Source of the DNA: a virus
Lineage: Duplodnaviria > Caudoviricetes
Reading direction: 5' to 3' (one strand)
Length of the DNA stretch: 64,000 bases
IMG/VR virus record: IMGVR_UViG_3300032116_000002
Part shown: in pieces, positions 2,409-20,803 of the stretch
How positions within the stretch are numbered: the stretch's first letter is position 1
Layout of the letters: each line of letters starts with the position of its first letter
The notes under the pieces: generated by a model
What the model was told of the DNA's origin: nothing
The model's database searches: none
Seen by the model: only the letters and a program-made list of their open reading frames with translations
Program-made: the position numbers and the translations under genes

Positions 2409-2417
2409 TGTATCTCC

Positions 2418-2441
2418 AAAATAAAAGCCCCTTTCGGGGCT
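2418..2441 (-). terminator. Intrinsic terminator after ahpD
   Basis: AGCCCC-GAAA-GGGGCT followed by TTTATTTT on the minus strand. Confidence 0.85.
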
Positions 2442-2444
2442 ATG

Positions 2445-3888: not shown

Positions 3889-3984
3889 TTGTGTCTCCTT
3901 ATGTGTGAATGAAATTATAATAAGCTATCTATTATAATCTAGTTATTTAGCTTTTTTAAATAGTTTGGGTAAATACTTTTCGAT

Positions 3985-3990
3985 TAAATA
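3985..3990 (+). promoter_or_regulatory. Late promoter motif TAAATA heading the enzyme cluster
   Basis: 5 nt upstream of ATG 3996 with no SD. A divergent minus-strand copy lies at 3944-3949. Confidence 0.55.
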
Positions 3991-3995
3991 CATAG

Positions 3996-5576
3996 ATGAG
4001 TGGATTAGCGTTTAACCCAAATGCATATGATATCGTGTTTTTAAGCTACGATGAACCAAACGCCGACGAAAACTATCAGCATTTACTCTCAATAAAACCC
4101 AAAGCAAAACGTGTGCATTGTGTCAAGGGTAGTGACGCAGCGCATAAAGCCTGTGCGGAGTTAGCTACTACAGATAGAGTTGTAATTGTAGACGGTGATA
4201 ACAAAGTTCTACCATCATTATTCAAACGTAATGTTTGGATAAAGCAAGGATATTTTGACTGGGATGATAAAGTTTTTAGCTATAGTAGTCTAAACTCAAT
4301 CAATGGCACAAGTTATGGAAACGGTGGCGTTAAGTGTTGGCCCGTGGAAAAAATTTTGGCTATGCGAACTCACGAAATCAGTGAGGATGAAAATGTAAGT
4401 GTAGATTTTGATTTTGATAGTTATCTACAATTGAACACTATCGGCAGTCATACTGTCGTTAATAGTAATCCATTACAAGCATGGCGTGCAGGATTCCGTG
4501 ATGCAGTGAAGTTATTCATGAGTGGCAATGGTACGTTTGATGACGTAGATTGGCGCAATATGGATAGATTGTATAGTTGGATGCATATAGGTGCTGATGT
4601 TGAGAATGGATTATGGGCATGTTATGGTGCAAGATTAGGATGCTATTTGATACAGCGTGGTTATGACCATCATGAATTGTGCGATTTTGATAGATTAAAT
4701 GATACATTTAAAATGTATTACGCAGCATCACACAATAACTTAGAAAAGGCATGCAATAATTTATCTATATTGCTTAATCATAGATATGTAGGTAAGGTGT
4801 TCAGTCCTGAACAAAGTATTGAATACAAAGAAAATATTAAACCACCTGTTCGTAGTCCTGAACATTTTGTAGCAGGGAATAAAGATCCTGAGTATGACAT
4901 AGTTTTTATAAGTTATGATGAATCAAATGCTGATGAGAATTATGAAAAATTATTATGTAGGTTTCCTAGAGCAAAAAGAGTACATGGAGTAAAAGGTATA
5001 CACAATGCACACAAAGAGGCTGCATTGTTATGTTCTACTGATTACTTTTGGGTAGTAGATGCAGACGCAGAGATAGTAGATAGTTTTAATTTTGATTATG
5101 TTGTACCTTTCTTTGACTTAGCAAGAGTTAGAGTATGGCGTTGTAAGAATCCTATCAATGATCTTGTATATGGATACGGTGGTGTTAAGTTGTTACCTAG
5201 ATGTTTAGTAAATAAAATGGATGTTAACACTACTGATATGACAAGTAGCATAAGCAAACATTATGAACCAGTGCAAGAGTTAAGCAACATCACAAAATTT
5301 AACACTGATCCATTTACTACATGGCGCAGTGCATTTAGAGAATGTGTTAAGTTAAGTAGTCAAACTATTCAAGGGCAGGTATCACAAGAAACATTAGAAA
5401 GATTAGACATTTGGTGCAGTGTAGGTATAGATAAAGAATATGGCAAGTATGCTATTCAAGGTGCCAAACAAGGTAGAGAATACGGTTTAGAAAACAAAAA
5501 TAATAATGAAGCATTAAGAAAGATTAATGATTATAGTTGGTTAAAAGAATTATATGAAAGAACAGTTAGCGTTTAG
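3996..5576 (+). CDS. Tandem two-domain GT-A-like glycosyltransferase/nucleotidyl-sugar-binding protein
   Basis: Two homologous halves, each with YDIVF(L/I)SYDE..ADENY, RVH.VKG, a DxD motif (VDGD / VDAD), YG.GGVK and AW..FR..VKL. Confidence 0.65.
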   Translation: MSGLAFNPNAYDIVFLSYDEPNADENYQHLLSIKPKAKRVHCVKGSDAAHKACAELATTDRVVIVDGDNKVLPSLFKRNVWIKQGYFDWDDKVFSYSSLNSINGTSYGNGGVKCWPVEKILAMRTHEISEDENVSVDFDFDSYLQLNTIGSHTVVNSNPLQAWRAGFRDAVKLFMSGNGTFDDVDWRNMDRLYSWMHIGADVENGLWACYGARLGCYLIQRGYDHHELCDFDRLNDTFKMYYAASHNNLEKACNNLSILLNHRYVGKVFSPEQSIEYKENIKPPVRSPEHFVAGNKDPEYDIVFISYDESNADENYEKLLCRFPRAKRVHGVKGIHNAHKEAALLCSTDYFWVVDADAEIVDSFNFDYVVPFFDLARVRVWRCKNPINDLVYGYGGVKLLPRCLVNKMDVNTTDMTSSISKHYEPVQELSNITKFNTDPFTTWRSAFRECVKLSSQTIQGQVSQETLERLDIWCSVGIDKEYGKYAIQGAKQGREYGLENKNNNEALRKINDYSWLKELYERTVSV

Positions 5577-6549
5577 CGATATACCTTTCAATGACATTGT
5601 TAGATTTGGTCAGGCAACTATGCTTGATGACACACTGTTTTCTATAAGTTGGATATTAGGAAGATTTTGTAACTATAAATGCAGTTATTGTTGGCCATAC
5701 GCAAGAAATGATACACCAGATCATCAAGAACTAGAAACATATTTAAAAACAATAGATGAAATAAAAAGACAAGCCAGACAAAATGGCTTCAATAAATTTC
5801 ATTGGTCATTCAGTGGCGGCGAACCAACAGCGTATAAACATTTACTTGAATTAGTAAAGCATGTTGATGATGGACCTGGTACTCCATATCAAAGCATCCA
5901 CATGACTACTAACTTAAGTCCTAGTAGGCGTTGGTGGAAAAATTATGCTGAGATAACTAGCATGTTACAAAGGCGTAGTATCACTGCAAGCTTTCATGAT
6001 GAGTTCGCAAAAGAAATTGAGTTTGGTGATAAGATATTACAATTAACCGAAGATGATGTATTCGTAACTATTAATCAAGTTATGGTTCCGTCAAAGTTTT
6101 ATGAGTTATACGAAAGATTGTGTCGTTTTGCAGCACGTGGAATTAATGTCACACTCAAGCCACAAAGCGATCCTACAGCTAGTTTTGTAGTTGACGGATA
6201 CAGTGAAGATATGATAAAATTAATGCGTGATGGCTTCCCTCAACATGCAAAAAATCAAGAAGTAATGCAAGTAAAACTTATTGATAAAGATAATAAAGTT
6301 TGGTATATGGATCAAGCAGAAAGATTTAATGCGTTTGGTTTCAACAAATTTAAAGATTGGATGTGTAATTCAGGGTATCAAGGTTTAGTTATTAGAGAGA
6401 ATGAAGTAAAACGAAGCTATAGTTGTAGAGATGAAATATTAGGGACATTAGACGGTGGATTTAAATTATTTGATAGTCCTAAAATATGTATCACAGACAG
6501 TTGTGTGAGTTCCGCAGATAGTAAATTACCAAAATGCAAATCGATTTAG
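5554..6549 (+). CDS. Radical SAM enzyme with Cys-rich C-terminal (twitch-like) domain
   Basis: CNYKCSYC, FSGGEPT; C-terminal CNSG...SC...C..DSC. Confidence 0.9.
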   Translation: MKEQLAFSDIPFNDIVRFGQATMLDDTLFSISWILGRFCNYKCSYCWPYARNDTPDHQELETYLKTIDEIKRQARQNGFNKFHWSFSGGEPTAYKHLLELVKHVDDGPGTPYQSIHMTTNLSPSRRWWKNYAEITSMLQRRSITASFHDEFAKEIEFGDKILQLTEDDVFVTINQVMVPSKFYELYERLCRFAARGINVTLKPQSDPTASFVVDGYSEDMIKLMRDGFPQHAKNQEVMQVKLIDKDNKVWYMDQAERFNAFGFNKFKDWMCNSGYQGLVIRENEVKRSYSCRDEILGTLDGGFKLFDSPKICITDSCVSSADSKLPKCKSI

Positions 6550-7124
6550 AACACATATTATTTTGGATGGATGCTATTCGCAATAGCGAAGATCCTAAAC
6601 GCACTTTAGAAAGTTTCTGGAAAGGTCAGATCAAAAGCAAAGCCTGGCTGATAAGAGAAATGGGTGTGTTTATAGGTAAGCCAGTTACTATAGATATATT
6701 TGGTGGCTGGAACGGAGTGCTTGCTAGTATGTTGTTTCATGCTGCATATCCTGTAAAGTCTATTCGTAGTATTGACATTGATCCAAAATGCGAAGAAACT
6801 GCTAATACGATGAATAAGATTGAGCATATGGCGGGTAGATTTGTAGCAGTTACAGAGGATATGTGTGATTCTATTAGTGAGGCAGATGTAGTAATCAATA
6901 CTAGTTGCGAACATATTTCTCAAGACCAGTACAAAAGTTGGCTAAATAGATTACCTGCCAAAAGTTTGATTGTACTGCAAAGTAACAATTACCAAATAGA
7001 TGAGCATGTACGGATAGCTAACACACTAGATGAATTCATTGAACAATCAGAATTAAATGTTTCATTTTCTGGTGAGTTAGAGTTACCATTGTACAAAAGA
7101 TTTATGATTATAGGGAGAAAATAG
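6534..7124 (+). CDS. Class I SAM-dependent methyltransferase-like protein
   Basis: DIFGGWNG (motif I variant), SIDID (acidic motif II), DVVINTSCEH. Confidence 0.65.
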   Translation: MQIDLEHILFWMDAIRNSEDPKRTLESFWKGQIKSKAWLIREMGVFIGKPVTIDIFGGWNGVLASMLFHAAYPVKSIRSIDIDPKCEETANTMNKIEHMAGRFVAVTEDMCDSISEADVVINTSCEHISQDQYKSWLNRLPAKSLIVLQSNNYQIDEHVRIANTLDEFIEQSELNVSFSGELELPLYKRFMIIGRK

Positions 7125-7657
7125 TGCTAAAAAAGGTTCACTTAGATTTTGACTTTAGTAAACTATTGTCAGCGGATTATACTCAGCACTGCGGTAGCTG
7201 TATTAAACATCAGGTTCATGAATTGAATGATATACATGAGCAATATGGTGGCTTCCCTGAATCATACTCGTTTGAAAATACTAAGATACATCAACTATGG
7301 TGGGATGATACACAAATAGATTATAAAGAATTGGGTGAGAAGTTAGGTATGGAAGTAATCACAGTGAGTACAATCATGCAGCCACCTGGTTGTACTGTGC
7401 CATTACACCGTGATACTTTTTATCAAATCAATACACGTTATCCAGATAGAAAAGAATTAAAAGTTCGTGCAAACATATATCTAGAGGACTATAAAATAGG
7501 TCAATTCATTCAATACCAAGAAAACAATGGCTATACAACTAGTGTAGATTGGGTAACAGGTGATGGCTTCATTTGGGATAGCGAAGTTTTACATTTAAGC
7601 ACCAACGGTGGTATGCAAAACAAATATACAATGCAAGTGTCAGGATTTTTATTGTGA
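7124..7657 (+). CDS. 2OG-Fe(II)/cupin oxygenase-like protein
   Basis: QPPGCTVPLHRD and distal LHLSTNGG (HxD...H triad); GTG start with SD. Confidence 0.7.
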   Translation: MLKKVHLDFDFSKLLSADYTQHCGSCIKHQVHELNDIHEQYGGFPESYSFENTKIHQLWWDDTQIDYKELGEKLGMEVITVSTIMQPPGCTVPLHRDTFYQINTRYPDRKELKVRANIYLEDYKIGQFIQYQENNGYTTSVDWVTGDGFIWDSEVLHLSTNGGMQNKYTMQVSGFLL

Positions 7658-8685
7658 GATATCCAAGAAATTATACAAGCATTCACATAGAGTTAACAGA
7701 CAAGTGTCAAGCAAGTTGTCCAATGTGCGCACGTAACTACAATGGTGGTGCTGAAAGACCCTTTGTTGGTCAATCAGAGATTACACTAGAAGATTTTAAA
7801 CGTTGGGTAGATGTTGAGATATTAGAAAATTTATATTATTTTTACGCTTGTGGTAATTACGGAGATCCTATTATCGCTAAAGATTGTTTAGAAATTTTTA
7901 GATATGTTAGGGAAAATAGTGACACACGGTTGAGCATCCATACTAACGGTGGTGCAAGAAATACTAAATGGTGGCATGATTTAGCTGATGCAATGCGTGG
8001 CGATCATGAAGTTACATTTGGAATAGATGGATTTGCAGATAGTCATGTACTATATCGTAGAGGAACTGATTATAATAAAATTATCGACAACGCAAAGGCA
8101 TTTATTGATAACGGTGGATATGCTACAGTAGATACACTTATCTTCAAACACAATGAAGATGAAGCTAAGGCATTCGAAGAAGAAATGCTACGTATAGGAT
8201 TTAAATCTGTAAACTTCAAATCTACCCAACGTTTCTATGATATGGATAAGTTTCCTGTACAGGATACTAAAGGTAACTTAGAATATTATCTTGAACCTCC
8301 AACTAAAGAACCATTTAAAAGGATGAACTTCTTAAAGTTAGAAGATATTAGCAAAGATATTTCTATTTGGGAGAACATCGTTGCTACTACTAACGTTGAT
8401 CCTAAATGTATGAATAAGAATGAAATTTATATTGATAGCAGAGGCAATGTACTGCCCTGTTGTTGGGTAGGTTCAGATATGCTTGAAGAACCGTTAGACG
8501 TAAGTTTAACTATTCATAATCTTAGAAACAAATTAGTAGATAACACAAAAGAACATTTTGGTAAGTTTACAGGTCTTAATTTAAATGACTTGCCATTAGA
8601 TTATATTTTAGAAAGTGAAGCTTGGGCACTATTACATGATAAAGATATTAAGCCATGGATATGTACTAAGAATTGTTCAGCATGA
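7654..8685 (+). CDS. Radical SAM enzyme with SPASM/twitch-like C-terminus
   Basis: CQASCPMC, CGNYGDP, HTNGG; C-terminal PKC...PCC...C...C. Confidence 0.9.
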   Translation: MRYPRNYTSIHIELTDKCQASCPMCARNYNGGAERPFVGQSEITLEDFKRWVDVEILENLYYFYACGNYGDPIIAKDCLEIFRYVRENSDTRLSIHTNGGARNTKWWHDLADAMRGDHEVTFGIDGFADSHVLYRRGTDYNKIIDNAKAFIDNGGYATVDTLIFKHNEDEAKAFEEEMLRIGFKSVNFKSTQRFYDMDKFPVQDTKGNLEYYLEPPTKEPFKRMNFLKLEDISKDISIWENIVATTNVDPKCMNKNEIYIDSRGNVLPCCWVGSDMLEEPLDVSLTIHNLRNKLVDNTKEHFGKFTGLNLNDLPLDYILESEAWALLHDKDIKPWICTKNCSA

Positions 8686-9935
8686 TTAATTTATTCTACG
8701 ACAATTTAATTACAGGAAATGGTTCAAGTGAAATTGATAATCCAGTTCGCCCCACAATTAGCATTACACACCATTTAACTCAGTTGGGCGTAGAATTCAC
8801 AACTCATCAAATCAATTCAGAAACCAAACTAGACCACAATCAAACTAATTTATACGTTATTGAATTAATGTATGGGAATAAGATTGATGAGATATTTAAA
8901 AATTTAAGTGAGCAGGCACTAACATTTTTACGCAATGACATAAAGCTATTAGTTTATTTTCCATATGAGGGTTTTGAACTCAAATTATACGAAAATTGGT
9001 TTTATAAATTACACAAAGGGTTTATAAACCATAATATCACTTGCAAAAAATACTTTGTATTTAATAACTTGTATATGGAAGACCATTACAAGCATTTTTT
9101 ATTAGAAAATACGATAGGTGAACAGTTTCAATTCAACAACGTGTTCGGGTTCCCCTATTTTCAATTCGAATACTATCACACAGTAAAAGAACAAGTTGAA
9201 GAAGGACTTCCACAAGTTAAAGTAGAAAACCTTTTTAACAAAGATAAAGATTATTTGTGCTTAAATTCTAAAATAAGAGCCCATAGAGTGTTTTTAGTAA
9301 GTGAGTTGGAACGTAGAGAAATAGAAAAAAATTGTTATCTAAGTATGATGGGTAGCACATTTAAGTACGACGAAACTACAATAGAATTTGCCAAAAATGT
9401 ATTATCGCAATACATGAAAAACTCCGAGATGGTTAGTCAACCAATGATTGATGGGGTGCGTAAATACGTTGATGATTGGAAAGAACGACTTTTAGATAGT
9501 GATGCTAATAACTTAAACGACAGAGTATTAGATCCAAAATACTATGAGTCAAGTTTCTTCAGTATAGTAAGCGAAACTGGAATGAGTCATCATTTAAGAT
9601 TGACTGAAAAGCCATTCAGAGCGATAGTAAACTATCACCCATATATTATTGTGGGATGTAACGGTACTTTAGAATATCTAAAGTCATTAGGTTTTGAAAC
9701 TTTCCCTGAATTGTTTGATGAAAGTTATGATAATGAACCAGATATGGCTAAACGATTATTAATGGTAATTAATGAGGTAGAAAAGTTTGTCAATCTTACA
9801 TTCGACGAAAAAATGTCGAGATATAGAATGGTACACGATAAAGTATTACACAACAGAGAAGTATTTTTTAATAAAGTCGCAGTTGATACTATTAATGACT
9901 TTAAAAAGATTTTTGAGTATATAAAAAATGACTGA
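8682..9935 (+). CDS. Glycosyltransferase-like protein (GT10/fucosyltransferase-like C-terminal motif)
   Basis: FSIVSET..LTEKPF.AI....PYIIVG..GTL.YL.SLGF.TF pattern. The start is more likely the ATG at 8682 (ATGA overlap) than the TTG at 8673. Confidence 0.55.
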   Translation: MINLFYDNLITGNGSSEIDNPVRPTISITHHLTQLGVEFTTHQINSETKLDHNQTNLYVIELMYGNKIDEIFKNLSEQALTFLRNDIKLLVYFPYEGFELKLYENWFYKLHKGFINHNITCKKYFVFNNLYMEDHYKHFLLENTIGEQFQFNNVFGFPYFQFEYYHTVKEQVEEGLPQVKVENLFNKDKDYLCLNSKIRAHRVFLVSELERREIEKNCYLSMMGSTFKYDETTIEFAKNVLSQYMKNSEMVSQPMIDGVRKYVDDWKERLLDSDANNLNDRVLDPKYYESSFFSIVSETGMSHHLRLTEKPFRAIVNYHPYIIVGCNGTLEYLKSLGFETFPELFDESYDNEPDMAKRLLMVINEVEKFVNLTFDEKMSRYRMVHDKVLHNREVFFNKVAVDTINDFKKIFEYIKND

Positions 9936-11340
9936 ACAATTTTGGAAAACACACAACAGCCCTAAACTGGCTGAACTACAGACAAACATAGAGCAACTAG
10001 CCGGTACAGATACATTCTGTGTATTACCTTGGATACACTTTGCTACTAGACCAAATGGCGATATGAGATTATGCTGCTCTGCTAATGCAAGCGGTGCAGG
10101 ACTAGATCATACAGTTGGATTAGTAAAAAACGAAACAGGAAAGCCTGCTAACTTTGGTAAAGAAACTCCATTAAGTGCATGGAACAATGACTACATGAAA
10201 AGTGTACGCACAACTATGCTACGGAATGAAATACCTAGTAGTTGCAGTAAGTGCTTTGAAGAAGAAGGTAAAGGTGTAGTCAGTAAGCGTATGTGGGAAA
10301 GCAACACATGGATGGCTGATGGTTTAGATATACCTGAACTCGTAAGACAAACACAAGAAGATGGCACTATACCTGACAAACTTGTTTACTTAGACTTGCG
10401 TTTAGGTCATACGTGTAATCTTAAATGTATTATGTGTAGCCCACATGATAGTAGTAAATGGGTACAAGATTACAAAAAAGTGTTTCCTATACTACAAAGT
10501 GAGGTAGTTAAATCACAAATTGCATGGGAGCAATCAGAGTTTAATAATCAATGGTATGAGAATCCATCGTTCTGGGAACAGATGTTTGAGCAGATTCCTA
10601 ATCTCAAACAAGTGTACTTTGCAGGTGGTGAACCACTAATGATCAAAGAACACAAAATGTTTTTAGAAGAAATCATACGCAGAGGATATGCTGATAAGAT
10701 ATTAATTCGTTACAACAGTAATGGATTGTTATTAGATCAGGATACAATTGATTTATGGAAACAGTTTAAGAAAGTTAAATTCGCAGTAAGTATTGATGAC
10801 ATTGGAGATAGAAATTACTTCATACGTTATCCAGCAGATTGGGCCACACTTGAAAAGAACATGCACATTCTAGATCAGACACCTAGCAACATTCATGTGA
10901 GTATCGCAACTGCTATTCAAATACTTAATATTAAAACGTTACCTGAACTAGCAAAGTGGAAGATTAATCAAGGATTCAAAAAGATTAATTTAGAAAATGT
11001 ATACGACGGTGTACAAGCAGGTGGCGGTATATTCAATATGCATTTGCTCTATATACCAACATTCTTAAGTTGTAGACTATTGCCTGAAGAAGATAAACGT
11101 GAAGTTCGTAAGATATACGGTGAGTTTGCTACATGGCTACATGAGAATTATAGACAAGATGAAGATTTTTGGAAGATAAATCCATATGGCTGGAAGCGTT
11201 GGCAAGCTATACTAGACTTTATGGATGCAGAAGATCATACGCATTTATTACCAGACTTTAAAGAATACATTCACAAAATGGATAATATTCGTGGCACTGA
11301 CTTTAAACAAATATTCCCTGGATTAGCACACTTACTATGA
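9928..11340 (+). CDS. Radical SAM enzyme with N-terminal twitch-like domain
   Basis: N-terminal CVLPW..RLCC..CSKC; CNLKCIMC; FAGGEP. Confidence 0.9.
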   Translation: MTEQFWKTHNSPKLAELQTNIEQLAGTDTFCVLPWIHFATRPNGDMRLCCSANASGAGLDHTVGLVKNETGKPANFGKETPLSAWNNDYMKSVRTTMLRNEIPSSCSKCFEEEGKGVVSKRMWESNTWMADGLDIPELVRQTQEDGTIPDKLVYLDLRLGHTCNLKCIMCSPHDSSKWVQDYKKVFPILQSEVVKSQIAWEQSEFNNQWYENPSFWEQMFEQIPNLKQVYFAGGEPLMIKEHKMFLEEIIRRGYADKILIRYNSNGLLLDQDTIDLWKQFKKVKFAVSIDDIGDRNYFIRYPADWATLEKNMHILDQTPSNIHVSIATAIQILNIKTLPELAKWKINQGFKKINLENVYDGVQAGGGIFNMHLLYIPTFLSCRLLPEEDKREVRKIYGEFATWLHENYRQDEDFWKINPYGWKRWQAILDFMDAEDHTHLLPDFKEYIHKMDNIRGTDFKQIFPGLAHLL

Positions 11341-12344: not shown

Positions 12345-13209
12345 TAATAGGAATGTCAGCCGCACATGTGCAGAACTCTCTTGTACATGTGATAGGCTCT
12401 TTGGGTATATCAAAAGTACCATTGTAGATATTACCCAAACTACCGCCTACTCTGCAAGTCGCACGATGTACTTCACCATCCCAGTTAATCATCAAGCTTT
12501 CTAATCCTATATTACAAGTCCAATCTTTGAACTTGTTGAGGTGTAATTTAATAATTTCATTAGCATGATACTTGTGTTCATCATCTACAACGGTGTTAGG
12601 TTGCGTTTTAGCCTCGTACCCTTTTATCCAATCTAAATCATTCTGATCGTATTTCATATCATCAAACAAATCATGATCACCTTCAGTCCAACGAACACGA
12701 CGGATGATATGATGAACTCCGTGCTGCTGTAGTATATCAACTGCTTCTCTAACATCTTTCATTAGGTCTTGATGAGCCATTACATGTACGACAGTAGTTC
12801 TAAACTTGCTTACTTCAACAATTGTTTTTAGTACTCTTCTCCAATCATATTCAAAGTGTAAACTGAAAACAAATTGATCGGCTTTTTGTTGTAGATACCA
12901 TGAGTAAGGTCTAGTACCATTTGTAGTAACGCTTACCCATTCTACTTTATTATCTTTTGCATGTTTAATTATTTCTTCAAAGTTGGGATGTACTGTTGGT
13001 TCACCACCCGTAAAACTTAACCTAATAGGTCTACCTATATCAAGTAATTTATTAATAGAACGTTTAATTATTTCAATATCAGTATGTGGACTGGTGTTGT
13101 CATGTATAACCGCAGGACAATAACTACAATCGTAATTGCACCGCTTACCTAAATTCCATTCTACTTTAATAGAATTTTGATGCGACCATCTGCTAGTAAC
13201 TTTAAACAT
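12322..13209 (-). CDS. Radical SAM enzyme
   Basis: CNYDCSYC, FTGGEPT, TTNGT; C-terminal CNIG...ATC...CTREFCTC. Confidence 0.9.
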   Translation of the reverse strand: MFKVTSRWSHQNSIKVEWNLGKRCNYDCSYCPAVIHDNTSPHTDIEIIKRSINKLLDIGRPIRLSFTGGEPTVHPNFEEIIKHAKDNKVEWVSVTTNGTRPYSWYLQQKADQFVFSLHFEYDWRRVLKTIVEVSKFRTTVVHVMAHQDLMKDVREAVDILQQHGVHHIIRRVRWTEGDHDLFDDMKYDQNDLDWIKGYEAKTQPNTVVDDEHKYHANEIIKLHLNKFKDWTCNIGLESLMINWDGEVHRATCRVGGSLGNIYNGTFDIPKEPITCTREFCTCAADIPITKFAPSL

Positions 13210-14476
13210 ATGGTGCGAACTCTTTAATTACGCTTTCTAGAGGACCTTGATTTCTTGTTTTATCTAATCTACGATTGAATTCTACAAACTCTGACCATAA
13301 ATTATGTTGATCTCTAGCTTCCAAATAGTTTATATTATCTCTTATCTGTTGTCTAGTTATTCTTTCTAACAAAGGATGCTTTTTAATATTTTCAAATGTC
13401 CACAATCTTTTTTCAACAGATTCTAATCTATCTATAGCTAACTCTTTTAACTCAGTAGGCAATACCTGAGCAGATAAACAATTAGGATAACTGACTCTAT
13501 GACTGTAGAATACAATATTCATTTCATTGATAAAGTAATCTATACATTCTGCTGCTTGTAATATGTTACCTGCTTGTGCAGTGAATGCGCCAACTATTCT
13601 ACTAATGTTAGGTAGTGTTTGCATCTCTTTAATGTTCTTCTCTACCTCAGCAAAGTTGCTATTGCTTCTAATATAGTTGTAAACATCATGTATGCCGTCT
13701 AAGCTAACATTGACTGCGATACTCTTAAAGTGTGGCCAATAATCATGTATCGTTCTATTCTTGCTGATGCCTAATGTTGTTCCGTTAGTAGCATACTTCA
13801 ACTCCATGTTCTTACCATATGGCTTTAGCATATCTAATATCTTATAATGCTGTGGATCCATTAATGGCTCGCCACCTGCAAACTCAACACGACGGAAATG
13901 TGGTATTAGTTTTTCAAAGCTGTTCCACCAATTCTCTGTATCGTCAAATGGGCCTATATATTGTCCGGGCTTGTCAACAAGTTTTGCTACAGTTGGTACA
14001 AGATAATTATTTTCTTTTTCATAGAATGGTTTTACTTCATTCCAATCTTGCCAACTTGTACTATCAAGTGGGTTACACATTCTACACTTAAGATTACATA
14101 GATTATTCAATTTGATTTCCATTGTAGGGAACTCAAATGGCATTGAGTAATCATCATTTAAATTGTCTAGTGCGTTTGGGTATAAATTAATTCTAGCTTC
14201 TGGTATAACACCATTGATGTGTCGTTGTCTTAAACTCTCTACACCTTGATCTTCTAAATCAAAGCAAGGCTTACAAACATCAGGTCTTTCACCATTCAAT
14301 ATTTGTTGTCTCACTTTTTTCATTTCATCGTTGTTCCACGCTGATTCTAAACTTTCGTTCTGAATCCAACCTATGGGTAGACTACGACAACAAATTTTTA
14401 TCGCACCATCTTCTCTAGTAGCAAGCCCTGTAAAGGGATGCATACAAAATGTTTTACTTTGATTGTTCAACTGCAT
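13202..14476 (-). CDS. Radical SAM enzyme with N-terminal twitch-like domain (paralog of 9928-11340)
   Basis: CMHPF..ICC..CKPC; CNLKCRMC; FAGGEP. Start placed at ATG 14476 rather than 14536. Confidence 0.9.
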   Translation of the reverse strand: MQLNNQSKTFCMHPFTGLATREDGAIKICCRSLPIGWIQNESLESAWNNDEMKKVRQQILNGERPDVCKPCFDLEDQGVESLRQRHINGVIPEARINLYPNALDNLNDDYSMPFEFPTMEIKLNNLCNLKCRMCNPLDSTSWQDWNEVKPFYEKENNYLVPTVAKLVDKPGQYIGPFDDTENWWNSFEKLIPHFRRVEFAGGEPLMDPQHYKILDMLKPYGKNMELKYATNGTTLGISKNRTIHDYWPHFKSIAVNVSLDGIHDVYNYIRSNSNFAEVEKNIKEMQTLPNISRIVGAFTAQAGNILQAAECIDYFINEMNIVFYSHRVSYPNCLSAQVLPTELKELAIDRLESVEKRLWTFENIKKHPLLERITRQQIRDNINYLEARDQHNLWSEFVEFNRRLDKTRNQGPLESVIKEFAPYV

Positions 14477-15233
14477 ACTCTCTTTCTTTGCACCAAAAGC
14501 ATTCACCGCATACAGGAACATGTTGACCCCGCACATAGGTTTTGTAGTCTAACTCTGGAAACTCGCCCTCACAACTTCTGGTTAAATTAAATAATCTCAT
14601 TATTCCTAATATTCTATATTGTAACACAACCCATGACTTATCTATGAATCTAAAGGGATGACATGCCAATATATCTAAATGGTTCATTACCATTAATCTA
14701 AAATTTTCTTCATTTGGTTCAACATCTCTTGCTGATAAGCTATAATCATGCAAATTTACTTCTGGGTTTTTAGTTACCGCGTTAAAATATGCGTCAACCT
14801 TATTGTGAAAACTTACATACTCAGCCCATGCTCGTAATTCCATTGTATCACCACTGACTGTTTTACCATATTCATCAGTCAAGTTCTGACCACTAAAGCC
14901 ATGTTCTAATTCAGGTGGTACGAAATTTTCATGTATAGTAAAATGTATTTCTGGGAAATGTTTTTCAAAGTAATCAACAACAATATCTCTTACAGGACCT
15001 TGCCAAGGTCTAGTTTTCCAACATCTTATATTACATACTAAGTGTATGTCAATTTTGGCTTTTGTATCTAGTATTTTCTTGCATAGTAAATAGAGCAATA
15101 ATGCTGAATCAGCACCACCGCTTAATGCTAAACTGATTCTGCGCCATCTAGGGTCAAATGGTATAATTAATCCATTAAAGTTATCTACAGGTCCTGTATA
15201 ATTTTTGTAGAGTTCATTGATTTTTTCTAACAT
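14454..15233 (-). CDS. QueC-like PP-loop ATPase
   Basis: LSGGADS PP-loop, HPF...K, TRSC, CGECFWCKER Zn motif; matches the QueC pattern. Confidence 0.75.
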   Translation of the reverse strand: MLEKINELYKNYTGPVDNFNGLIIPFDPRWRRISLALSGGADSALLLYLLCKKILDTKAKIDIHLVCNIRCWKTRPWQGPVRDIVVDYFEKHFPEIHFTIHENFVPPELEHGFSGQNLTDEYGKTVSGDTMELRAWAEYVSFHNKVDAYFNAVTKNPEVNLHDYSLSARDVEPNEENFRLMVMNHLDILACHPFRFIDKSWVVLQYRILGIMRLFNLTRSCEGEFPELDYKTYVRGQHVPVCGECFWCKEREYAVEQSK

Positions 15234-15240
15234 AACAAGC

Positions 15241-15256
15241 TATTTATAACTAAATA
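15241..15256. promoter_or_regulatory. Back-to-back late promoter motifs (TAAATA on both strands)
   Basis: Minus TAAATA at 15241-15246 (7 nt from ATG 15233) and plus TAAATA at 15251-15256 (5 nt from ATG 15262), within a 28-nt divergent gap. Confidence 0.6.
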
Positions 15257-15261
15257 CCTGT

Positions 15262-15936
15262 ATGATCAATAAAACAGAATGGTATATTCCTAGTGAGTTA
15301 CTAGAAGAAGCGATAGGCACACTCCCAAATATAGACTATAGACTAACACTAAACGAACCTACGGGTAGATTCTTTTATGACAAATGGAAAGTAAAAGAAG
15401 AATTTGTAGGTACAGTTTGGGAAGAAATACTTAACTCATTGCCATACGAAAAGGGTGAGGCAAGATTAATTAAATTAGAACCAGGTACTACATATATGTC
15501 ACATGCTGATTTAGATGATCGTTGGCATATGTCATTAACTGGTAACCAAAGCTATCTCATTAATTTGTCAGATGACATTATGTATAAATTAGATATTGAT
15601 GGTTATTGGCATAGTATGAATGCAGGAAAACTACATGTAGCCGCTAACTTTGGTGAGATACCAAGAGTACAATTAGTTGTAAGACAATTACTAAAACAAC
15701 CTAAATATACATCAGATTTTGTTCAATTAAAAATAATTCCAGCTATAGAAAGATTTGATAGTAGGTACCAATTTGATAAAACAATTAGTCCATGGTTAAA
15801 TCAACATATTAAGACAGGTGATATCAGCGATTTATCAGTAGAGAATGGAATCGTTAGTATGAAACTATTTGATGGTTTTCTGATTAAATTAAATGAAATT
15901 GTGAAACCTTATTTTAAGGTAGTTCTTTCCAACTAG
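15262..15936 (+). CDS. Asp/Asn beta-hydroxylase-like (2OG-Fe(II)) protein with extra C-terminal domain
   Basis: RLIKLEPG...HAD.D.RWH and LHVAAN. Confidence 0.7.
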   Translation: MINKTEWYIPSELLEEAIGTLPNIDYRLTLNEPTGRFFYDKWKVKEEFVGTVWEEILNSLPYEKGEARLIKLEPGTTYMSHADLDDRWHMSLTGNQSYLINLSDDIMYKLDIDGYWHSMNAGKLHVAANFGEIPRVQLVVRQLLKQPKYTSDFVQLKIIPAIERFDSRYQFDKTISPWLNQHIKTGDISDLSVENGIVSMKLFDGFLIKLNEIVKPYFKVVLSN

Positions 15937-16483
15937 GGTATTTACTTAAACTCTCGTAAAACTTGTCAGGGAATATCTGCCATACAGTCTGATCTATTCC
16001 CCTATAGAATACATCTTTGACTTTCTTAGCGATACCCATTTCTTGCAAAGTAGGAAAGTAAACTTTATGTACTAAACTTTGTTTACCTACTTTACTATCA
16101 TTACTTGTAGCATATAACCTGTCCGTATCAGCCCACTCAATACACTGTGGCATATAATACTGATCTGTAACATGTTGATGCGTTTGTATTCTTTTATAAG
16201 GACTTATTAATCCTTTTTCCAATGCTGTAATCTCAGGAAACACACAAACTCTACTTAGTATCCTATAACTACCATCGCCCATAACATCGTCAAATGTATG
16301 TGCTGCTACTGATCCAACTGCTTTATCATCTTGATATAGTACCCAAACATTCCATCGTTCTTCTTTGCGGAAGCAATCAACCATAACATGTTGACTGCTA
16401 TTGTTTAGAAAGCCTTTACTTTCAGCAGTTCTATAAAAATCATTAAGATTGAGCTTAGGATCCCATTCTACAAGTTTAAGCAT
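15914..16483 (-). CDS. GNAT-fold acetyltransferase-like protein
   Basis: WVLYQDDKAVGSVAA..YRILSRVCVFP; GNAT beta-strand order. Confidence 0.5.
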   Translation of the reverse strand: MLKLVEWDPKLNLNDFYRTAESKGFLNNSSQHVMVDCFRKEERWNVWVLYQDDKAVGSVAAHTFDDVMGDGSYRILSRVCVFPEITALEKGLISPYKRIQTHQHVTDQYYMPQCIEWADTDRLYATSNDSKVGKQSLVHKVYFPTLQEMGIAKKVKDVFYRGIDQTVWQIFPDKFYESLSKYPSWKELP

Positions 16484-17165
16484 ATATCTCTTTAGCCTTG
16501 TTTATAAAATCTATAGGATAGTTGTTACTAAAACTATCAAAGCATAATATCTGTGCTTTTTGTAGGGGTGTAGGTTCGTCCCAACTTATACCTTTACTTT
16601 CACTGTATTTTTGTAACTCTAGTCTACGGTTACTACTAATATGACTTAGTACATCACTTATCTTTATTGTTTCTTCATCACCGCTGTATGTGAAAAAATA
16701 ATTGATGCTTTTTAATTTACCATCAACAATAAAGTAACTACTAGGATGCATACTAAATTTATATAAGTTTAAACTTCTGTGTGCTTTGATTATCTCTAGC
16801 ATTTGTTCTTGCCAGTCGGGTAATATATTATTATAGTTTTCTTCCAAACAGCCTGATTGTTCCCAAAAATCATCACCATCTACTTCTAAGTAAATCTTCT
16901 TATTAATTAAATCTATTTCTCTAATATTAGGAACTAAATCAGGAAACTCTTTACTCATAAGATAAATGTATTGTAGTTCTCTATCCCACTTCTCTTGCAT
17001 CTTTTCGGGATCAACGACTTCATTCATACCCTTATGATAGTCTGTATCATTGTGATACCATTTTACAAATGTTTTCTTGTCATCAGACATTAAACTTGTA
17101 TAGATTAAATTATTTCTGCACTGACCAATACCAGGCACATTATTGTAATAGTAAGAATAGCTCAT
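16476..17165 (-). CDS. Protein-kinase-like fold protein with degenerate catalytic motifs
   Basis: FVKW, WDREL, VPNI, IYLE, FSMHPSSY, SINYFF aligned by eye to kinase subdomains. Confidence 0.5.
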   Translation of the reverse strand: MSYSYYYNNVPGIGQCRNNLIYTSLMSDDKKTFVKWYHNDTDYHKGMNEVVDPEKMQEKWDRELQYIYLMSKEFPDLVPNIREIDLINKKIYLEVDGDDFWEQSGCLEENYNNILPDWQEQMLEIIKAHRSLNLYKFSMHPSSYFIVDGKLKSINYFFTYSGDEETIKISDVLSHISSNRRLELQKYSESKGISWDEPTPLQKAQILCFDSFSNNYPIDFINKAKEIYA

Positions 17166-17172
17166 ATAAATA
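17165..17172 (+). promoter_or_regulatory. Full T4 late promoter consensus TATAAATA
   Basis: Exact match 29 nt upstream of ATG 17202. Confidence 0.65.
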
Positions 17173-17201
17173 CTTATAATTCAAAATAGGGAACCAAAAA
17201 A

Positions 17202-18011
17202 ATGATCAGAGGTATCGGTGGCAGACCATATGTAAACTTAGATGAATTTATTGATATTGAAAAATTTAAAAGTTTACATCCAGAAATAATGCATGGATTT
17301 GCTACAGCAAGACAATTCGCTAAAGAAGGCACTTGGATGAAGCCAGGCTTTGATACTGCAAAAGGCAGTTATCAATATTTTTGGAAACCTATTTACAAAG
17401 CAGTTGAAGAATATCTAGCATTACCCGATGACGATCCAATTAAAGTAGGTGGTTGGGATTTATATACAAGCATTAAAGATCATCATACTAGAAATATATT
17501 CACACGATATTTAAAAATGGCAATGGGTGCATATGACCCATACATTTATTATTTCTTATGGGAAGAAGGTAGTTGGGACGATAGAACTGCACCTAGAAAA
17601 TTAACAGAAGAAGCTGTACACTTTCCTAATGTTGTGCAATGGATTGAAAGCATGGTAGGAACAGTCTTTGAAGATGTGGGTAGAGTTATTTTCTTTCATT
17701 GTGAAGCAGATGGCATACCTTTTGAACACAGAGACCTAGATGCCAAGAACGGCGTTATGGATGAAAACATGTATAGCCCACATAGAAATGAATTCATACA
17801 TCTAAGAGCAAACACAAAGAAAGGATTCTATGTATGGGATCCTGATGCTAAAAACAAATATTTCTTAAACTGTCACGCAGCTTGGTGGAACGACCAAGAC
17901 TGGCATGGTGGCGAAAGAATAATGGAACAGAGTTATAGTTTACGAATAGACGGAAAGTTTACTGAGGATTTTAGAAAACAGATTGGTGTTGATCACTTAG
18001 AATACTATTGA
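17202..18011 (+). CDS. 2OG-Fe(II)/cupin oxygenase-like protein
   Basis: GRVIFF..PFEHRD and DWHGG (HxD...H). Confidence 0.6.
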   Translation: MIRGIGGRPYVNLDEFIDIEKFKSLHPEIMHGFATARQFAKEGTWMKPGFDTAKGSYQYFWKPIYKAVEEYLALPDDDPIKVGGWDLYTSIKDHHTRNIFTRYLKMAMGAYDPYIYYFLWEEGSWDDRTAPRKLTEEAVHFPNVVQWIESMVGTVFEDVGRVIFFHCEADGIPFEHRDLDAKNGVMDENMYSPHRNEFIHLRANTKKGFYVWDPDAKNKYFLNCHAAWWNDQDWHGGERIMEQSYSLRIDGKFTEDFRKQIGVDHLEYY

Positions 18012-18614
18012 TTTAGCTTCTTCTAACACTGTTTCTATTTTGTCGCTACCTGTAATTCTTTTTATTTCATTGATTGTTTTTTCAGTTAATTTAACTTTGT
18101 ATTCAATCTGATGAATTTTAGGGTGTTGTAGCCAAAATTCAATACTATCTATAATATCTTTGTAGGTAATGCTGTAATCACTATCAATTCTAGCAGGACT
18201 ATGATCACTGAGTGTTGATTCAGCAAATGCTATTTTTAATAGCAAGATATTAGCGATTCGTTCATCATCAATTATACCAATTTTTCTACTAGTTTCTTCT
18301 AATTCTAATTTATTAATTATATTTTTTCTACCTAATACTTCTTCATAATCTGTAACAGCACTGCCCATAACAACAATATTAGGTGTAATAGTTGATGCCT
18401 TAATTAATAAATCTATTTGACTTGATAAGCCATCAAATGCGTTATTGATGAATAAATCTGCTGTCATTACATGATCTAATATTTTATCAATATCAGCTTT
18501 TATATCGTAGCCGTTACTACGTGATAATCCTATTACTTCATGTCCGACATTCTCAAAATAATCGTAACATGCTTTACCTATACCCTTTGTGTGTCCTGTA
18601 ATTACTATTTTCAT
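17997..18614 (-). CDS. Atypical short-chain dehydrogenase/reductase
   Basis: TGHTKGIG Rossmann motif, INNA, MGS; no YxxxK. Confidence 0.7.
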   Translation of the reverse strand: MKIVITGHTKGIGKACYDYFENVGHEVIGLSRSNGYDIKADIDKILDHVMTADLFINNAFDGLSSQIDLLIKASTITPNIVVMGSAVTDYEEVLGRKNIINKLELEETSRKIGIIDDERIANILLLKIAFAESTLSDHSPARIDSDYSITYKDIIDSIEFWLQHPKIHQIEYKVKLTEKTINEIKRITGSDKIETVLEEAKSIVF

Positions 18615-19147
18615 TCGTATGCCAAATAATTAAATTGATATTTTACTGTGTATCCGAAGTTAGCACTACCATGCCAATCTTTGTAACTATGCCAACGATA
18701 CACATCCCCTTGTTGCCCACCTACTATGGCATAGTTACTGACTACTGCAACTTGCCCAGTTCCATCTTTGTTGATTCTTGCTGTATATCTCACTAATGAG
18801 CCTTTGTTTTCATACTCATCCGCAAAATCATCTATGTCCCAATGCCATGGTGCAGTACAACCAGGATTGATTCTGCTTATCCATGCTCTTGCATAATTAG
18901 TATTACCTACAAACTCTCCAAATAGCTTATCTATATTTGAATCATAATCTTTGTTTGGATAGTAATTAATCCACTCTGCACTTTCTTTTAGATAGTTACT
19001 GTCGATTGATAGTTGTTTAATTTTTATAAACTCAGGGTGATCCCAATCCCAACGTGGTAGTGCAACACCTGGTTTGTTTTCTATACTGTTGATGACTTCA
19101 TCCCAGTTGATTATATTACTACAATTTCCTATGTGGGTTGGACTCAT
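18611..19147 (-). CDS. 2OG-Fe(II)/cupin oxygenase-like protein
   Basis: ISRINPGCTAPWHWD and WHGSAN. Confidence 0.7.
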   Translation of the reverse strand: MSPTHIGNCSNIINWDEVINSIENKPGVALPRWDWDHPEFIKIKQLSIDSNYLKESAEWINYYPNKDYDSNIDKLFGEFVGNTNYARAWISRINPGCTAPWHWDIDDFADEYENKGSLVRYTARINKDGTGQVAVVSNYAIVGGQQGDVYRWHSYKDWHGSANFGYTVKYQFNYLAYE

Positions 19148-19767
19148 AGAATTTCAGTAAGCATAACACCCCATTCAGTGATATGCTTTTTAACGCCTTG
19201 TTCGTAAAACACAGTAAGGTCTACATTGTCACCGAATGTACTTTCAAGCCAACGGTCTTGACTTTTTTGACCTATTACATGTTTCAATATATGCACGGGG
19301 ACAGTTGCTTGCGCTTTGTCAACGCAAGCATACATATCAAAGGTATGTAATGTATTATCTTTGATATAAAAACTATGCGGTTGTATAGTAAGTTTAATAA
19401 AATTATTTGATTCTAAATCTTGTATAATTTGTTTTAATTGTGATTTCCAATCTATACAATGATCTTCTAAAGCACGATTGGTAAACAATACATTGTTACA
19501 AGATTCTGTAAATTCTATAAAAATTTTCTTAGTTGAAGTATCAACATGTTTAACTACTGGTGCCCAAGAATAATTTTTAAATTGCTCTAAGTATTTTAAT
19601 TCACGATCCCAATAAAATGAATTATCAAAATCTATTCTAGCATTTCCGTAATCCATGCATAATGTGCCACTATCTTTATCTAACAATGGCACATATACAT
19701 GATTAGTATAACTGGGTACATCAAAATCTAATCTAAAAACTTCTTCCCAATTATCTGTGTTATACAT
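19144..19767 (-). CDS. Protein-kinase-like fold protein, paralog of 16476-17165
   Basis: Shared WDREL.Y, P.V...D....KI..E, W..Q...II, and S(F/Y)(Y/F)I.D..L motifs. Confidence 0.5.
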   Translation of the reverse strand: MYNTDNWEEVFRLDFDVPSYTNHVYVPLLDKDSGTLCMDYGNARIDFDNSFYWDRELKYLEQFKNYSWAPVVKHVDTSTKKIFIEFTESCNNVLFTNRALEDHCIDWKSQLKQIIQDLESNNFIKLTIQPHSFYIKDNTLHTFDMYACVDKAQATVPVHILKHVIGQKSQDRWLESTFGDNVDLTVFYEQGVKKHITEWGVMLTEIL

Positions 19768-19889
19768 TATTTCTCCGTTTTAGAAATCATTGCTCTGATT
19801 TTTGTTTCAAGCATTTTAGCCCAAAATGGTTGTGGGAAGTTCCAACCTATAAATGCTCCTACTAATATCCATAAAAGTGTATCTAACAT
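19767..19889 (-). CDS. 40-aa membrane peptide MLDTLLWILVGAFIGWNFPQPFWAKMLETKIRAMISKTEK
   Basis: Manual translation; AAGGAG SD; TAATG overlap with the next gene. Below the ORF-track cutoff. Confidence 0.75.
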   Translation of the reverse strand: MLDTLLWILVGAFIGWNFPQPFWAKMLETKIRAMISKTEK

Positions 19890-19900
19890 AATATAGCTCC

Positions 19901-20284
19901 TTATTGTAAGTTATGTTTTTGTTTATAATCGTTCACTGCTGCTTTGATAGCATCCTCCGCCAGTATTGAACAGTGAATTTTGACTGGCGGTAAAGCCAAC
20001 TCCTCTGCAATTTCCGTGTTCTTAATTTCTGTAGCTTCCGTAAGTGTTTTGCCTTTAAGCCATGTCGTGACCAACGACGAACTAGCAATCGCCGAACCAC
20101 ACCCATAGGTTTTGAATTTTGCATCGGTGATAGTTTCATTTTCTACCTTTATCTGAAGTTGTAGGACGTCTCCGCAAGCCGGGGCTCCAACTAAGCCTGT
20201 TCCTACACTAGGATCATTTTTATCTAACTTACCTACATTTCTAGGATTTTCATAATGATCTAATACTTGACCTGAATATGCCAT
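19901..20284 (-). CDS. iscU: Fe-S cluster scaffold IscU
   Basis: LDHYENPRNVG, GAPACGD, GCGSAIASS and LPPVKIHC; all three Cys plus the HscA-binding LPPVK. Confidence 0.97.
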   Translation of the reverse strand: MAYSGQVLDHYENPRNVGKLDKNDPSVGTGLVGAPACGDVLQLQIKVENETITDAKFKTYGCGSAIASSSLVTTWLKGKTLTEATEIKNTEIAEELALPPVKIHCSILAEDAIKAAVNDYKQKHNLQ

Positions 20285-20803
20285 TTAAAACGTTCCTTCC
20301 TTTGTTTCTACAACTAACCAACCTAATTTAAATAAATCTTCTTTTACTTCATCAGTGACTTCACCTTCACCAACATAATGTTTAGTTAAGTCACCATCAT
20401 CGTGACGTATGCCACTACAGTACCAATCCATGTAATCACCTTCTCCAGTAAGGTCAGCGACAATGCCGCCTGCATAACGCCAACTGCAAGTCCATACTTC
20501 ATCTTTTAAAATAGGCATAACATCATTGCGTTGGAACTCATTATTGCATAATGCTGCGTAAATATTTTGTGCGTAGGCTCTATTTTTGCATTTTTCTACG
20601 ATAAGTTCACTACTACGCAAATCGTATTCTAAGTTATTCTTTTGCCATTCTGGATCATTCTCTAAAGCCATTTTATCTGCTTCAAAGTTAATGTAAAAGT
20701 CTGCTAGTTTTTCCTTCATATCATCTTCATAGGTATCAGGAATTCTAGCAATTCTATTTTGTAGAGTTTGCTCTCTGTGTTTACTTATAGCTAACTTCTT
20801 CAT
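20285..20803 (-). CDS. Hypothetical protein, 172 aa
   Basis: Long ORF coupled to iscU; no recognised motif. Confidence 0.8.
   Translation of the reverse strand: MKKLAISKHREQTLQNRIARIPDTYEDDMKEKLADFYINFEADKMALENDPEWQKNNLEYDLRSSELIVEKCKNRAYAQNIYAALCNNEFQRNDVMPILKDEVWTCSWRYAGGIVADLTGEGDYMDWYCSGIRHDDGDLTKHYVGEGEVTDEVKEDLFKLGWLVVETKEGTF

Follow-up and report, generated by a model that had tools for sequence, protein, structure and literature searches.

What could a tailed phage make with a contiguous array of about 20 enzyme genes, six of which encode radical S-adenosylmethionine (SAM) enzymes? The question is raised by a 64,000-nucleotide stretch of viral DNA (IMG/VR record IMGVR_UViG_3300032116_000002; Caudoviricetes), here called the window, in which an island of tailoring enzymes occupies positions 3996 to 20284 (~16 kb). 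An original prediction, made from the DNA letters alone, had read these genes as a coherent, apparently late-expressed biosynthetic cluster that would modify virion proteins or glycans or replicated DNA. According to the present analysis, the enzyme island is real, widespread, and strongly conserved. Its function, in the reading that we favor with about as much confidence as doubt, would be to tailor a nucleotide-linked sugar by radical and oxidative chemistry and then to transfer it, late in infection, onto an acceptor (virion proteins, by our leading guess).

The window originates from a large, uncultured T4-like phage from a lake. Its phage origin is apparent from a 938-amino-acid (aa) virion protein that is 40% identical to cyanomyovirus structural proteins, from ribonucleotide reductase (RNR) genes, and from a long block of tail fiber genes; a DNA search of isolated phages found no near-identical DNA. 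The open reading frames (ORFs) of the island are as originally described, i.e., 19 genes (g1 to g19) and one 40-codon ORF, with ends that mostly overlap or abut. Five blocks on alternating strands, namely, g1 to g8 (+), g9 to g11 (-), g12 (+), g13 and g14 (-), and g15 (+), are followed by a last minus-strand block of g16 to g18, the small ORF, and the gene of the iron-sulfur (Fe-S) scaffold IscU (g19), which continues into g20 and a DUF2452 gene. The GC content of 31 to 35% equals that of the flanks. Membrane segments were predicted in none of the proteins g1 to g18 or in IscU, the 40-codon ORF being the only hydrophobic one, and the island is a block of soluble cytoplasmic enzymes.

A conserved core and its periphery

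Synteny was compared across 80 IMG/VR loci with flanks of up to 10 kb on either side of g7. Ten genes (g1-g2-g3-g5-g7-g8-g9-g10-g11-g12) are found with little change in order or orientation in nearly all 80 viral contigs, with identities of 50 to 72%, and g4, g6, and g13 to g18 are variable. Because the order of the former is kept while the latter come and go, the island is, as judged from gene order, a ten-gene core with a changeable periphery. Conserved synteny had been proposed as one of the checks on this tailoring cluster, and the linkage is indeed maintained across nearly all of the loci.

The most conserved gene of the island is g7, whose relatives in IMG/VR (at least 135) share 63 to 72% identity and which forms more than 4000 clusters at 90% identity in metagenomes, on contigs of up to 375 kb. 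Thousands of aquatic variants are held at 60 to 70% identity, which points to strong selection. Isolated phages contain no close g7, the protein search having found only relatives of 22 to 24% identity in jumbo phages of Vibrio and Ralstonia. The DNA of positions 9000 to 16000 is present (96 to 100% of the sampled words) in about 20 freshwater metagenome runs of 16 studies from 2019 to 2025, several of them labeled "fungus metagenome."

Radical SAM enzymes

All six predicted radical SAM genes (g2, g5, g7, g8, g9, and g10) pass the Pfam model PF04055 with 37.6 to 57.3 bits (cutoff, 29.5), and the CX3CX2C motif of the SAM-binding [4Fe-4S] cluster is intact in six of six and invariant in alignments of their relatives. 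Three architectures can be distinguished. A C-terminal cysteine cluster is found in g2 (5554-6549, +; PF04055 E value, 1.3e-12; CX3CX2C at residue 39), g8 (11337-12344, +; BLASTP match to g9 with an E value of 4e-20), and g9 (12322-13209, -; PF04055 E value, 2.9e-15, with the alignment invariants). The second type is represented by g5 (7654-8685, +), with a C-terminal CC plus CxxxC, and the third by g7 (9928-11340, +) and g10 (13202-14536, -), in which an N-terminal, twitch-type cysteine domain precedes the radical SAM core. The last two match the family NF033640 (N_Twi_rSAM; cutoff, 170 bits), with 399.7 bits over profile positions 2 to 397 for g7 and 324.7 bits over positions 1 to 397 for g10, which is 27% identical to g7 and has viral homologues of 61 to 80% identity. 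In the alignment of this type, the invariant N-terminal residues C31, C49, C50, C106, and C109 are followed by C163/C167/C170 of the core, and the Pfam SPASM match spans residues 31 to 109. The longest ORF of g10 overlaps g11 by 83 nucleotides; since the lengths of the homologues point to a site about 20 codons further in, its true start probably lies near position 14476.

The profile of the g2/g8/g9 type is nearest, among solved structures, to viperin-like enzymes and MoaA (E values of 7e-15 to 1e-11). Both abstract hydrogen from the ribose of nucleoside triphosphates. For the family profile of g5, the closest and almost sole match is the cytosylglucuronate decarboxylase BlsE (E value, 2.8e-9), which decarboxylates the glucuronic acid of cytosylglucuronate (PMC3715490). 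The g7/g10 profile has weak matches only, the best being SkfB (E value, 1.6e-5), accompanied by an archaeal lipid synthase and, again, BlsE.

Other enzymes of the core

The first gene, g1 (3996-5576, +), encodes two tandem domains of the GT-A fold (nucleotide-diphospho-sugar transferase), both of which contain a DxD motif. Internally duplicated in g1, this domain of 225 to 300 aa is carried as single genes by most relatives, and D64/D66 are invariant across both domain subfamilies. An AlphaFold2 (AF2) model of the C-terminal copy has the GT-A fold, with a predicted local distance difference test score (pLDDT) of 89.8, and superimposes on B4GALNT1 with a VIA Z score of 11.4 and a root mean square deviation of 3.1 over 140 residues. 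Its structural neighbors include many GT2 enzymes, ThuS/SunS, polypeptide GalNAc-transferases, WrtF, TarP, and A64R of the chlorovirus PBCV-1. Curated glycosyltransferase profiles do not capture g1 (PF00535, 16.9 bits; cutoff, 23.3), and no sequence match was obtained in NCBIfam, PHROGs, or the PDB; one of the two glycosyltransferase-like genes originally proposed is thus recovered by its fold.

The same applies to the methyltransferase, g3 (6534-7124, +), which is borne out as a class I SAM-dependent methyltransferase fold by an AF2 model (pLDDT, 89.4) with Foldseek E values of 1e-9 to NTMT1, DnrK, NodS, and NAS (TM score of up to 0.69). Residues G57, G58, and G61 of its Gly-rich motif I (GGWxG) are invariant; no Pfam match exceeded the cutoff, and the PDB sequence-profile search was empty. 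The core further includes g12 (15262-15936, +), an alpha-ketoglutarate/Fe(II) hydroxylase whose profile matches Cpz10 (PDB 7v4f) with an E value of 1.5e-14 over 97 residues, with aligned HxD..H triads and invariant H81, D83, and H125. Cpz10 is the alpha-ketoglutarate/Fe(II) beta-hydroxylase of caprazamycin biosynthesis and acts on a glycyl-uridine derivative (PMC9814697).

The PP-loop ATPase g11 (14454-15233, -) is QueC-like at the motif level, as its invariant residues S38-G-G-A-D-S43, C221, C242, C245, and C248 correspond to the PP-loop and the C-terminal four-cysteine arrangement of QueC (SGGADS and TRSCEG...C..CFWC, i.e., C..CxxCxxC). The thresholds of the QueC profiles were not reached: Pfam and NCBIfam gave no QueC match, the only hits being phrog_1550 (E value, 1.3e-5 over 74 residues) and the TilS N-domain (E value, 1.5e-3), and the PDB sequence-profile search returned PP-loop noise only.

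Counterparts in Bdellovibrionota and other bacteria

The best bacterial relatives of g7 (42 to 47% identity) stem mostly from metagenome-assembled genomes (MAGs) of Bdellovibrionota, including a 2.9-Mb chromosome and a 936-kb contig. In Bdellovibrionota, homologues of g1, g2, g3, and g5 are located beside the g7 homologue, together with many extra radical SAM paralogues. NF033640 was detected in 31 of 151 sampled Bdellovibrionota genomes, often in multiple copies (up to 11 scored), and in 0 of 14 control genomes. Two Bdellovibrionota genomes have 9 and 12 matches above the cutoff (13 and 15 at an E value of <=1e-10) at several chromosomal sites, a pronounced expansion of the family in predatory bacteria.

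Glycosyltransferases are recurrent neighbors. At two annotated Bdellovibrionota loci, the radical SAM arrays abut GT2, GT21, and PMT_2 genes and a flavin adenine dinucleotide (FAD) oxidase gene; a third locus, on a 20-kb assembly contig, consists of radical SAM genes and unassigned ORFs only. A marine MAG contig with the island core encodes a nucleoside diphosphate (NDP)-sugar epimerase/dehydratase, a carbamoyltransferase, and a nucleotide-sugar transferase. The same contig harbors a gene (2308-4638, +) whose 776-aa product joins a sugar-type oxidoreductase domain (GFO_IDH_MocA) to a radical SAM domain. Even a distant NF033640 member, of Streptosporangium fragile, is found among genes for an NDP-sugar epimerase, GT1, four GT2 enzymes, WbsX, PhyH, methyltransferases, a carbamoyltransferase, and two more radical SAM/SPASM proteins.

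Late-type motifs and timing

The TAAATA motif is present at every position at which it had been reported (3985, 15241, 15251, and 17165). Back-to-back late-type motifs occupy the 28-bp divergent intergenic region at 15234-15261, with TATAAATA on the minus strand (15241-15248, the g11 side) and CTAAATA on the plus strand, and a further exact TATAAATA is located at 17165-17172 (+), 29 nucleotides upstream of the g15 start. NTAAATA variants precede the other transcription units of the island and four genes of the tail fiber block. Window-wide, exact TATAAATA is not enriched (5 observed versus 12 expected). TAAATA within 40 nucleotides upstream of a start was found for 10 of the 62 window genes, including four in the tail fiber block and the heads of island blocks, compared with 2.1% of random 40-nucleotide windows. 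Among the relatives, 18 of 23 distinct sequences carry TAAATA 0 to 7 nucleotides ahead of the g12 start, and 8 of 19 carry it ahead of g11 (background, 2.1%); its frequency is near zero before operon-internal genes. The placement right at the starts implies that the transcripts would be leaderless or nearly so.

The RNR operon is headed differently. A perfect sigma-70 consensus (TTGACA-17-TATAAT, 12/12) at 30599-30571 (-) precedes the genes for a 144-aa protein and for the large subunit of RNR; it is the sole 12/12 match in 12 to 31 kb. The contrast with the deoxynucleotide operon that had been pointed out previously is therefore real at the motif level. The predicted late timing, as read from promoter motifs, is supported by T4-late-type motifs that are conserved in relatives and shared with tail fiber genes. 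No RNA runs were listed as matching the 7-kb island stretch (9000 to 16000). One metatranscriptome run with 6% of the sampled g7 words provided short contigs that are 87 to 93% identical on g5, g7, g8/g9, and g10, stem from relatives, possibly represent DNA carryover, and are no evidence of expression in this phage; three small RNA runs of the probable source study had no match to the island.

Accessory genes and genomic surroundings

Three of the four HxD..H oxygenases originally proposed are peripheral. The cupin g4 (7124-7657, +; 12 of 80 loci) aligns with the g17 family with an invariant H..D..H, and g17 (18611-19147, -) has invariant H102, D104, and H159; the g4/g17 family is related to the Cpz10-like g12 (hhalign E value, 1.3e-4; probability, 54%). 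For g15 (17202-18011, +), the invariant HRD..H and an Atlas lead (Asp_Arg_Hydrox; score, 0.95) point to a probable cupin of the Asp/Asn-hydroxylase type, which showed no relation to the g12 profile in hhalign. The two pseudokinase-like proteins are supported: g14 (16476-17165, -) is a small protein with a protein kinase fold (profile E value, 7e-7) that lacks the catalytic HxD, and g18 (19144-19767, -) is its paralogue according to the g14/g18 alignment and a kinase profile match. Other assignments hold in part. The supposed short-chain dehydrogenase/reductase (SDR), g16 (17997-18614, -), is an SDR-like Rossmann protein with N-terminal matches to PF01370 and adh_short just below the cutoff, and the supposed GCN5-related N-acetyltransferase (GNAT), g13 (15914-16483, -), has a weak FeeM/GNAT-like lead, with 4 of 10 homologues matching PF21926 at E values of >=0.03. 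The second glycosyltransferase candidate, g6 (8673-9935, +; 20 of 80 loci), is a 420-aa protein with an E..TEK motif, neither it nor its homologues providing a Pfam domain and its own searches of NCBIfam and the PDB being negative. Pfam searches via the homologues of g6, g13, and g15 yielded nothing usable.

IscU (g19; 19901-20284, -) was predicted correctly (TIGR01999, 217 bits; cutoff, 192.4). Because it is present in the flanks of none of the 80 loci, which only just reach the distance of IscU with their up to 10 kb on each side of g7, it is, on this count, a local addition in this phage and lies outside the conserved island. The 40-codon hydrophobic ORF (19768-19890, -), whose stop overlaps the g18 start and whose product resembles a single membrane helix, had been counted as a small peptide of the cluster but, as far as the flanks of the 80 related loci reach, is absent from all of them and lies outside the conserved unit.

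Upstream of the island, genes for an AhpC/TSA peroxiredoxin, a short GDSL-like ORF, and a CMD (AhpD-like) protein at 2445-3888 (-) read away from the island head. Their products could shield Fe-S enzymes, but the peroxiredoxin and AhpD-like genes occur in the flanks of 0 of 80 related loci. Just past IscU and on the same strand, positions 20781-22121 (-) encode the DUF2452 protein, with CTAAATAC 7 nucleotides before its start, and a SleB-type cell wall hydrolase (PF07486), and the minus-strand unit with g16 to g18 and IscU may start near here. Three paralogues that match the same part of phrog_2295 (function unknown) are encoded at 30667-31818, 35389-36306, and 52057-53274 (-), each inside the block of giant tail fiber genes. 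None of the window's tail fiber proteins has a homologue in the flanks (10 kb) of the 80 loci.

Proposed pathway and alternative explanations

In the proposed pathway, a nucleotide-linked sugar would be remodeled by the six radical SAM enzymes and the alpha-ketoglutarate/Fe(II) hydroxylases, with further tailoring by the QueC-like enzyme as an ATP-dependent activator of carboxylates, the methyltransferase, and the accessory kinase-fold, acyltransferase-like, and SDR-like proteins, before the tandem GT-A transferase g1 would move the sugar onto its acceptor. The QueC-like enzyme could turn the carboxylate of a uronic acid into an amide, a speculation from the known chemistry of QueC. In this phage, IscU and the neighboring peroxiredoxin and AhpD-like genes plausibly keep the Fe-S clusters loaded in an oxic host. 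We infer the kind of substrate and acceptor as well as the timing and sequence of the reactions, and provisionally place the tailoring at the level of the nucleotide sugar because the informative structural neighbors act on a sugar or side chain borne by a nucleoside or nucleotide and because the donors of GT-A enzymes are nucleotide sugars. The pathway is supported by the conserved linkage, by a transferase with a GT-A fold and an invariant DxD within an invariant core, by the association of this core with glycosyltransferases in cellular genomes, and by the nearest solved relatives (BlsE, viperin/MoaA, and Cpz10), which act on sugars of nucleosides or nucleotides. The enzymes without predicted membrane segments and the late-type motifs also speak for it. 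Virion proteins, which would be made at the same late time, are our leading guess for the acceptor, ahead of the host envelope, a free small molecule, and DNA, in this order.

Several observations speak against this pathway. Enzyme activity, product, and acceptor are predicted from the genes alone. The solved radical SAM relatives align over the common core only (~110 to 180 residues), which makes the inference of a substrate from them weak, and SPASM/twitch radical SAM enzymes most often modify peptides. Nucleotidyltransferases of the IspD/MobA type score nearly as high against g1 (Z scores of 10 to 10.8) as the GT-A enzymes (11.4), so that g1 could activate rather than transfer a sugar, and no classic starter enzyme of nucleotide-sugar biosynthesis (RmlA/RmlB type) is recognizable in the island of the window. 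With respect to timing and acceptor, about 10 kb including the RNR genes separates the island from the tail fiber genes, and the enrichment of TAAATA may partly reflect AT-rich start regions.

Remodeling of a host envelope glycan during infection (lipopolysaccharide O chain, capsule, or glycoprotein), e.g., to block superinfection, would agree with the membrane-type GT2/GT21 and PMT_2 genes that flank the Bdellovibrionota versions and with the location of radical SAM cassettes and glycosyltransferases in a phage host recognition cluster; for the glycosyltransferases of pelagimyophage hypervariable regions, an envelope role has been proposed and modification of the O chain favored (PMC7029224). 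We nevertheless consider it unlikely, given that library scans of the island revealed no lipid carrier priming transferase, flippase, or polymerase, that its enzymes are devoid of membrane segments, that late expression leaves little time to remodel a surface, and that a core with 60 to 70% identity across marine, estuarine, and lake contigs of presumably different hosts fits a phage-intrinsic or universal substrate better. Release of the product as a free small molecule, i.e., an extensively tailored metabolite of the hexuronyl- or peptidyl-nucleoside type, or a nucleotide analogue, that acts on the host or on competitors without being attached, is rather unlikely for partly different reasons. 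The nearest characterized relatives of four enzyme types (BlsE, Cpz10, viperin/MoaA, and the QueC motif set) do use free nucleosides or nucleotides, blasticidin-type pathways unite a methyltransferase and an enzyme that forms amides with a glycosyltransferase-like synthase and a radical SAM decarboxylase, and no acceptor gene is conserved in the island. In a cyanomyovirus, a sugar aminotransferase, an amidinotransferase, and a radical SAM gene have been named "antibiotic synthesis genes" (PMC12801897). However, the similarities are confined to common catalytic cores, the cellular core is embedded among several transferases of the GT2, PMT_2, and WbsX types for polymers or envelopes, neither an exporter nor a self-resistance gene was seen, and late timing would be odd for a metabolite of host takeover. 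It is improbable, in our estimate, that phages and predatory bacteria share a free nucleoside-sugar "natural product" made by BlsE-, viperin/MoaA-, Cpz10-, and QueC-like chemistry that poisons or reprograms the invaded cell or competitors.

The radical SAM enzymes might instead be maturases that cross-link, epimerize, or methylate, either in the manner of ribosomally synthesized and posttranslationally modified peptides (RiPPs) or directly on virion proteins, and sugars would then be added only as a secondary decoration, as happens in glycocins. Peptide maturases typically possess SPASM/twitch domains, the g7/g10 profile has SkfB as its best solved relative (E value, 1.6e-5), Foldseek ranks the glycocin S-glycosyltransferases ThuS/SunS and the polypeptide GalNAc-transferases near the top for g1, g12 and g15 resemble cupins of the Asp/Asn-hydroxylase type, and kinase-fold proteins are present. 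Nonetheless, the Foldseek ranking does not discriminate among GT-A families, the cellular contexts are rich in glycosyltransferases and not in peptides, and none of the profile libraries detected an RRE or a leader peptidase. Moreover, when the small ORFs outside large genes (445 in the window and the 80 loci together) were clustered, none was shared by more than five loci; the largest cluster comprised five near-identical loci, and the 40-codon ORF of the window belonged to no cluster. Because no precursor ORF is conserved, the RiPP part of the original prediction appears weakened and maturation as the main role seems unlikely, a modification of a large protein encoded elsewhere being compatible with the data. 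Hypermodification of replicated DNA, an option raised initially, or of tRNA is highly improbable. QueC- and QueE-like chemistry, transferases, and oxygenases do occur in phage pathways of DNA hypermodification, but g11 fails the QueC family profiles, and searches of Pfam, PHROGs, and NCBIfam recognized no DpdA/TGT transglycosylase, DNA kinase, DNA-binding domain, or hydroxymethylase in the island, five proteins of which are without firm assignment. This option is further weakened because the same core resides in bacterial chromosomes among envelope-type glycosyltransferases and not among restriction or dpd genes.

Comparison with known systems

Radical SAM enzymes are capable of reactions that lie beyond ordinary sugar-tailoring enzymes. 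Should the product be a sugar of the virion or envelope, phages would have a novel type of decoration, which oxygen-sensitive enzymes produce within aerobic hosts and which might be relevant to the encounter of T4-like phages of abundant aquatic bacteria, and of Bdellovibrio-type predators, with their prey; a free metabolite would amount to a natural product encoded by a virus. The five genes common to phages and bacteria (g1, g2, g3, g5, and g7) offer a compact, testable set for enzymology. New for this window are the Cpz10, BlsE, and viperin/MoaA neighbors, the structure models for g1 and g3, the test of whether the late motifs are conserved, and the recognition of IscU as a local addition.

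Comparable gene sets have been mentioned before. Environmental T4-like viral genomes contain up to 12 radical SAM genes together with Fe-S scaffolds (Nishimura 2017, PMC5332604), radical SAM cassettes were reported from the hypervariable host recognition cluster of pelagimyophages and cyanomyophages (Zaragoza-Solas 2020, PMC7029224), and a cyanomyovirus paper of 2025 refers to "antibiotic synthesis genes" of unclear purpose (PMC12801897). At the level of gene classes, the likeness to the first two systems is evident, as these also involve T4-like phages from aquatic environments that carry multiple radical SAM genes along with glycosyltransferases and Fe-S scaffolds such as IscU, but these papers only note the genes without defining a conserved core, a product, or a bacterial link. 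The conserved core, its bacterial counterpart, and the product are defined in none of the three publications, and the initial statement that no product had been described holds insofar as the literature only mentions such cassettes (PMC5332604, PMC7029224).

The family NF033640 matches g7 and g10 from end to end, with the Cys-rich domain ahead of the CX3CX2C core. Literature and PDB searches found no characterized member, solved structure, or paper for this family, which is catalogued only and therefore names g7 and g10 without giving a function; literature on an N-terminal SPASM/twitch family and on radical SAM enzymes in giant virus glycan work provided nothing relevant. In QueC, the 7-cyano-7-deazaguanine synthase, the PP-loop SGGxDS and the C-terminal four-Cys motif recur, but g11 remains below every QueC profile threshold and the island lacks the partners QueD, QueE, and FolE.

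With regard to virion decoration, A64R of the chlorovirus PBCV-1, a structural neighbor of g1, is reportedly a virus-encoded transferase of the GT-A type that glycosylates the capsid in the cytoplasm. In the virion glycosylation operons of mycobacteriophages, as far as they are described where cited (Freeman 2023, cited in PMC12801897), phage GT-A-type transferases and methyltransferases likewise decorate virion proteins in the cytoplasm. Both systems differ from the island in that they are not known to include radical SAM enzymes, a QueC-like enzyme, or hydroxylases, and the acceptor is here only proposed. The pathways of blasticidin S (BlsE, PMC3715490) and caprazamycin (Cpz10, PMC9814697) contain the best solved relatives of g5 and g12 and a similar mix of enzyme classes, but the similarity is limited to the catalytic cores, and no further enzyme specific to these pathways, such as a CGA synthase, an aminomutase, or the SHMT-like Cpz14, was recognized in the island. 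Their setting also differs, as blasticidin S and caprazamycin belong to actinomycetes, whereas the enzyme set described here belongs to phages and predatory bacteria.

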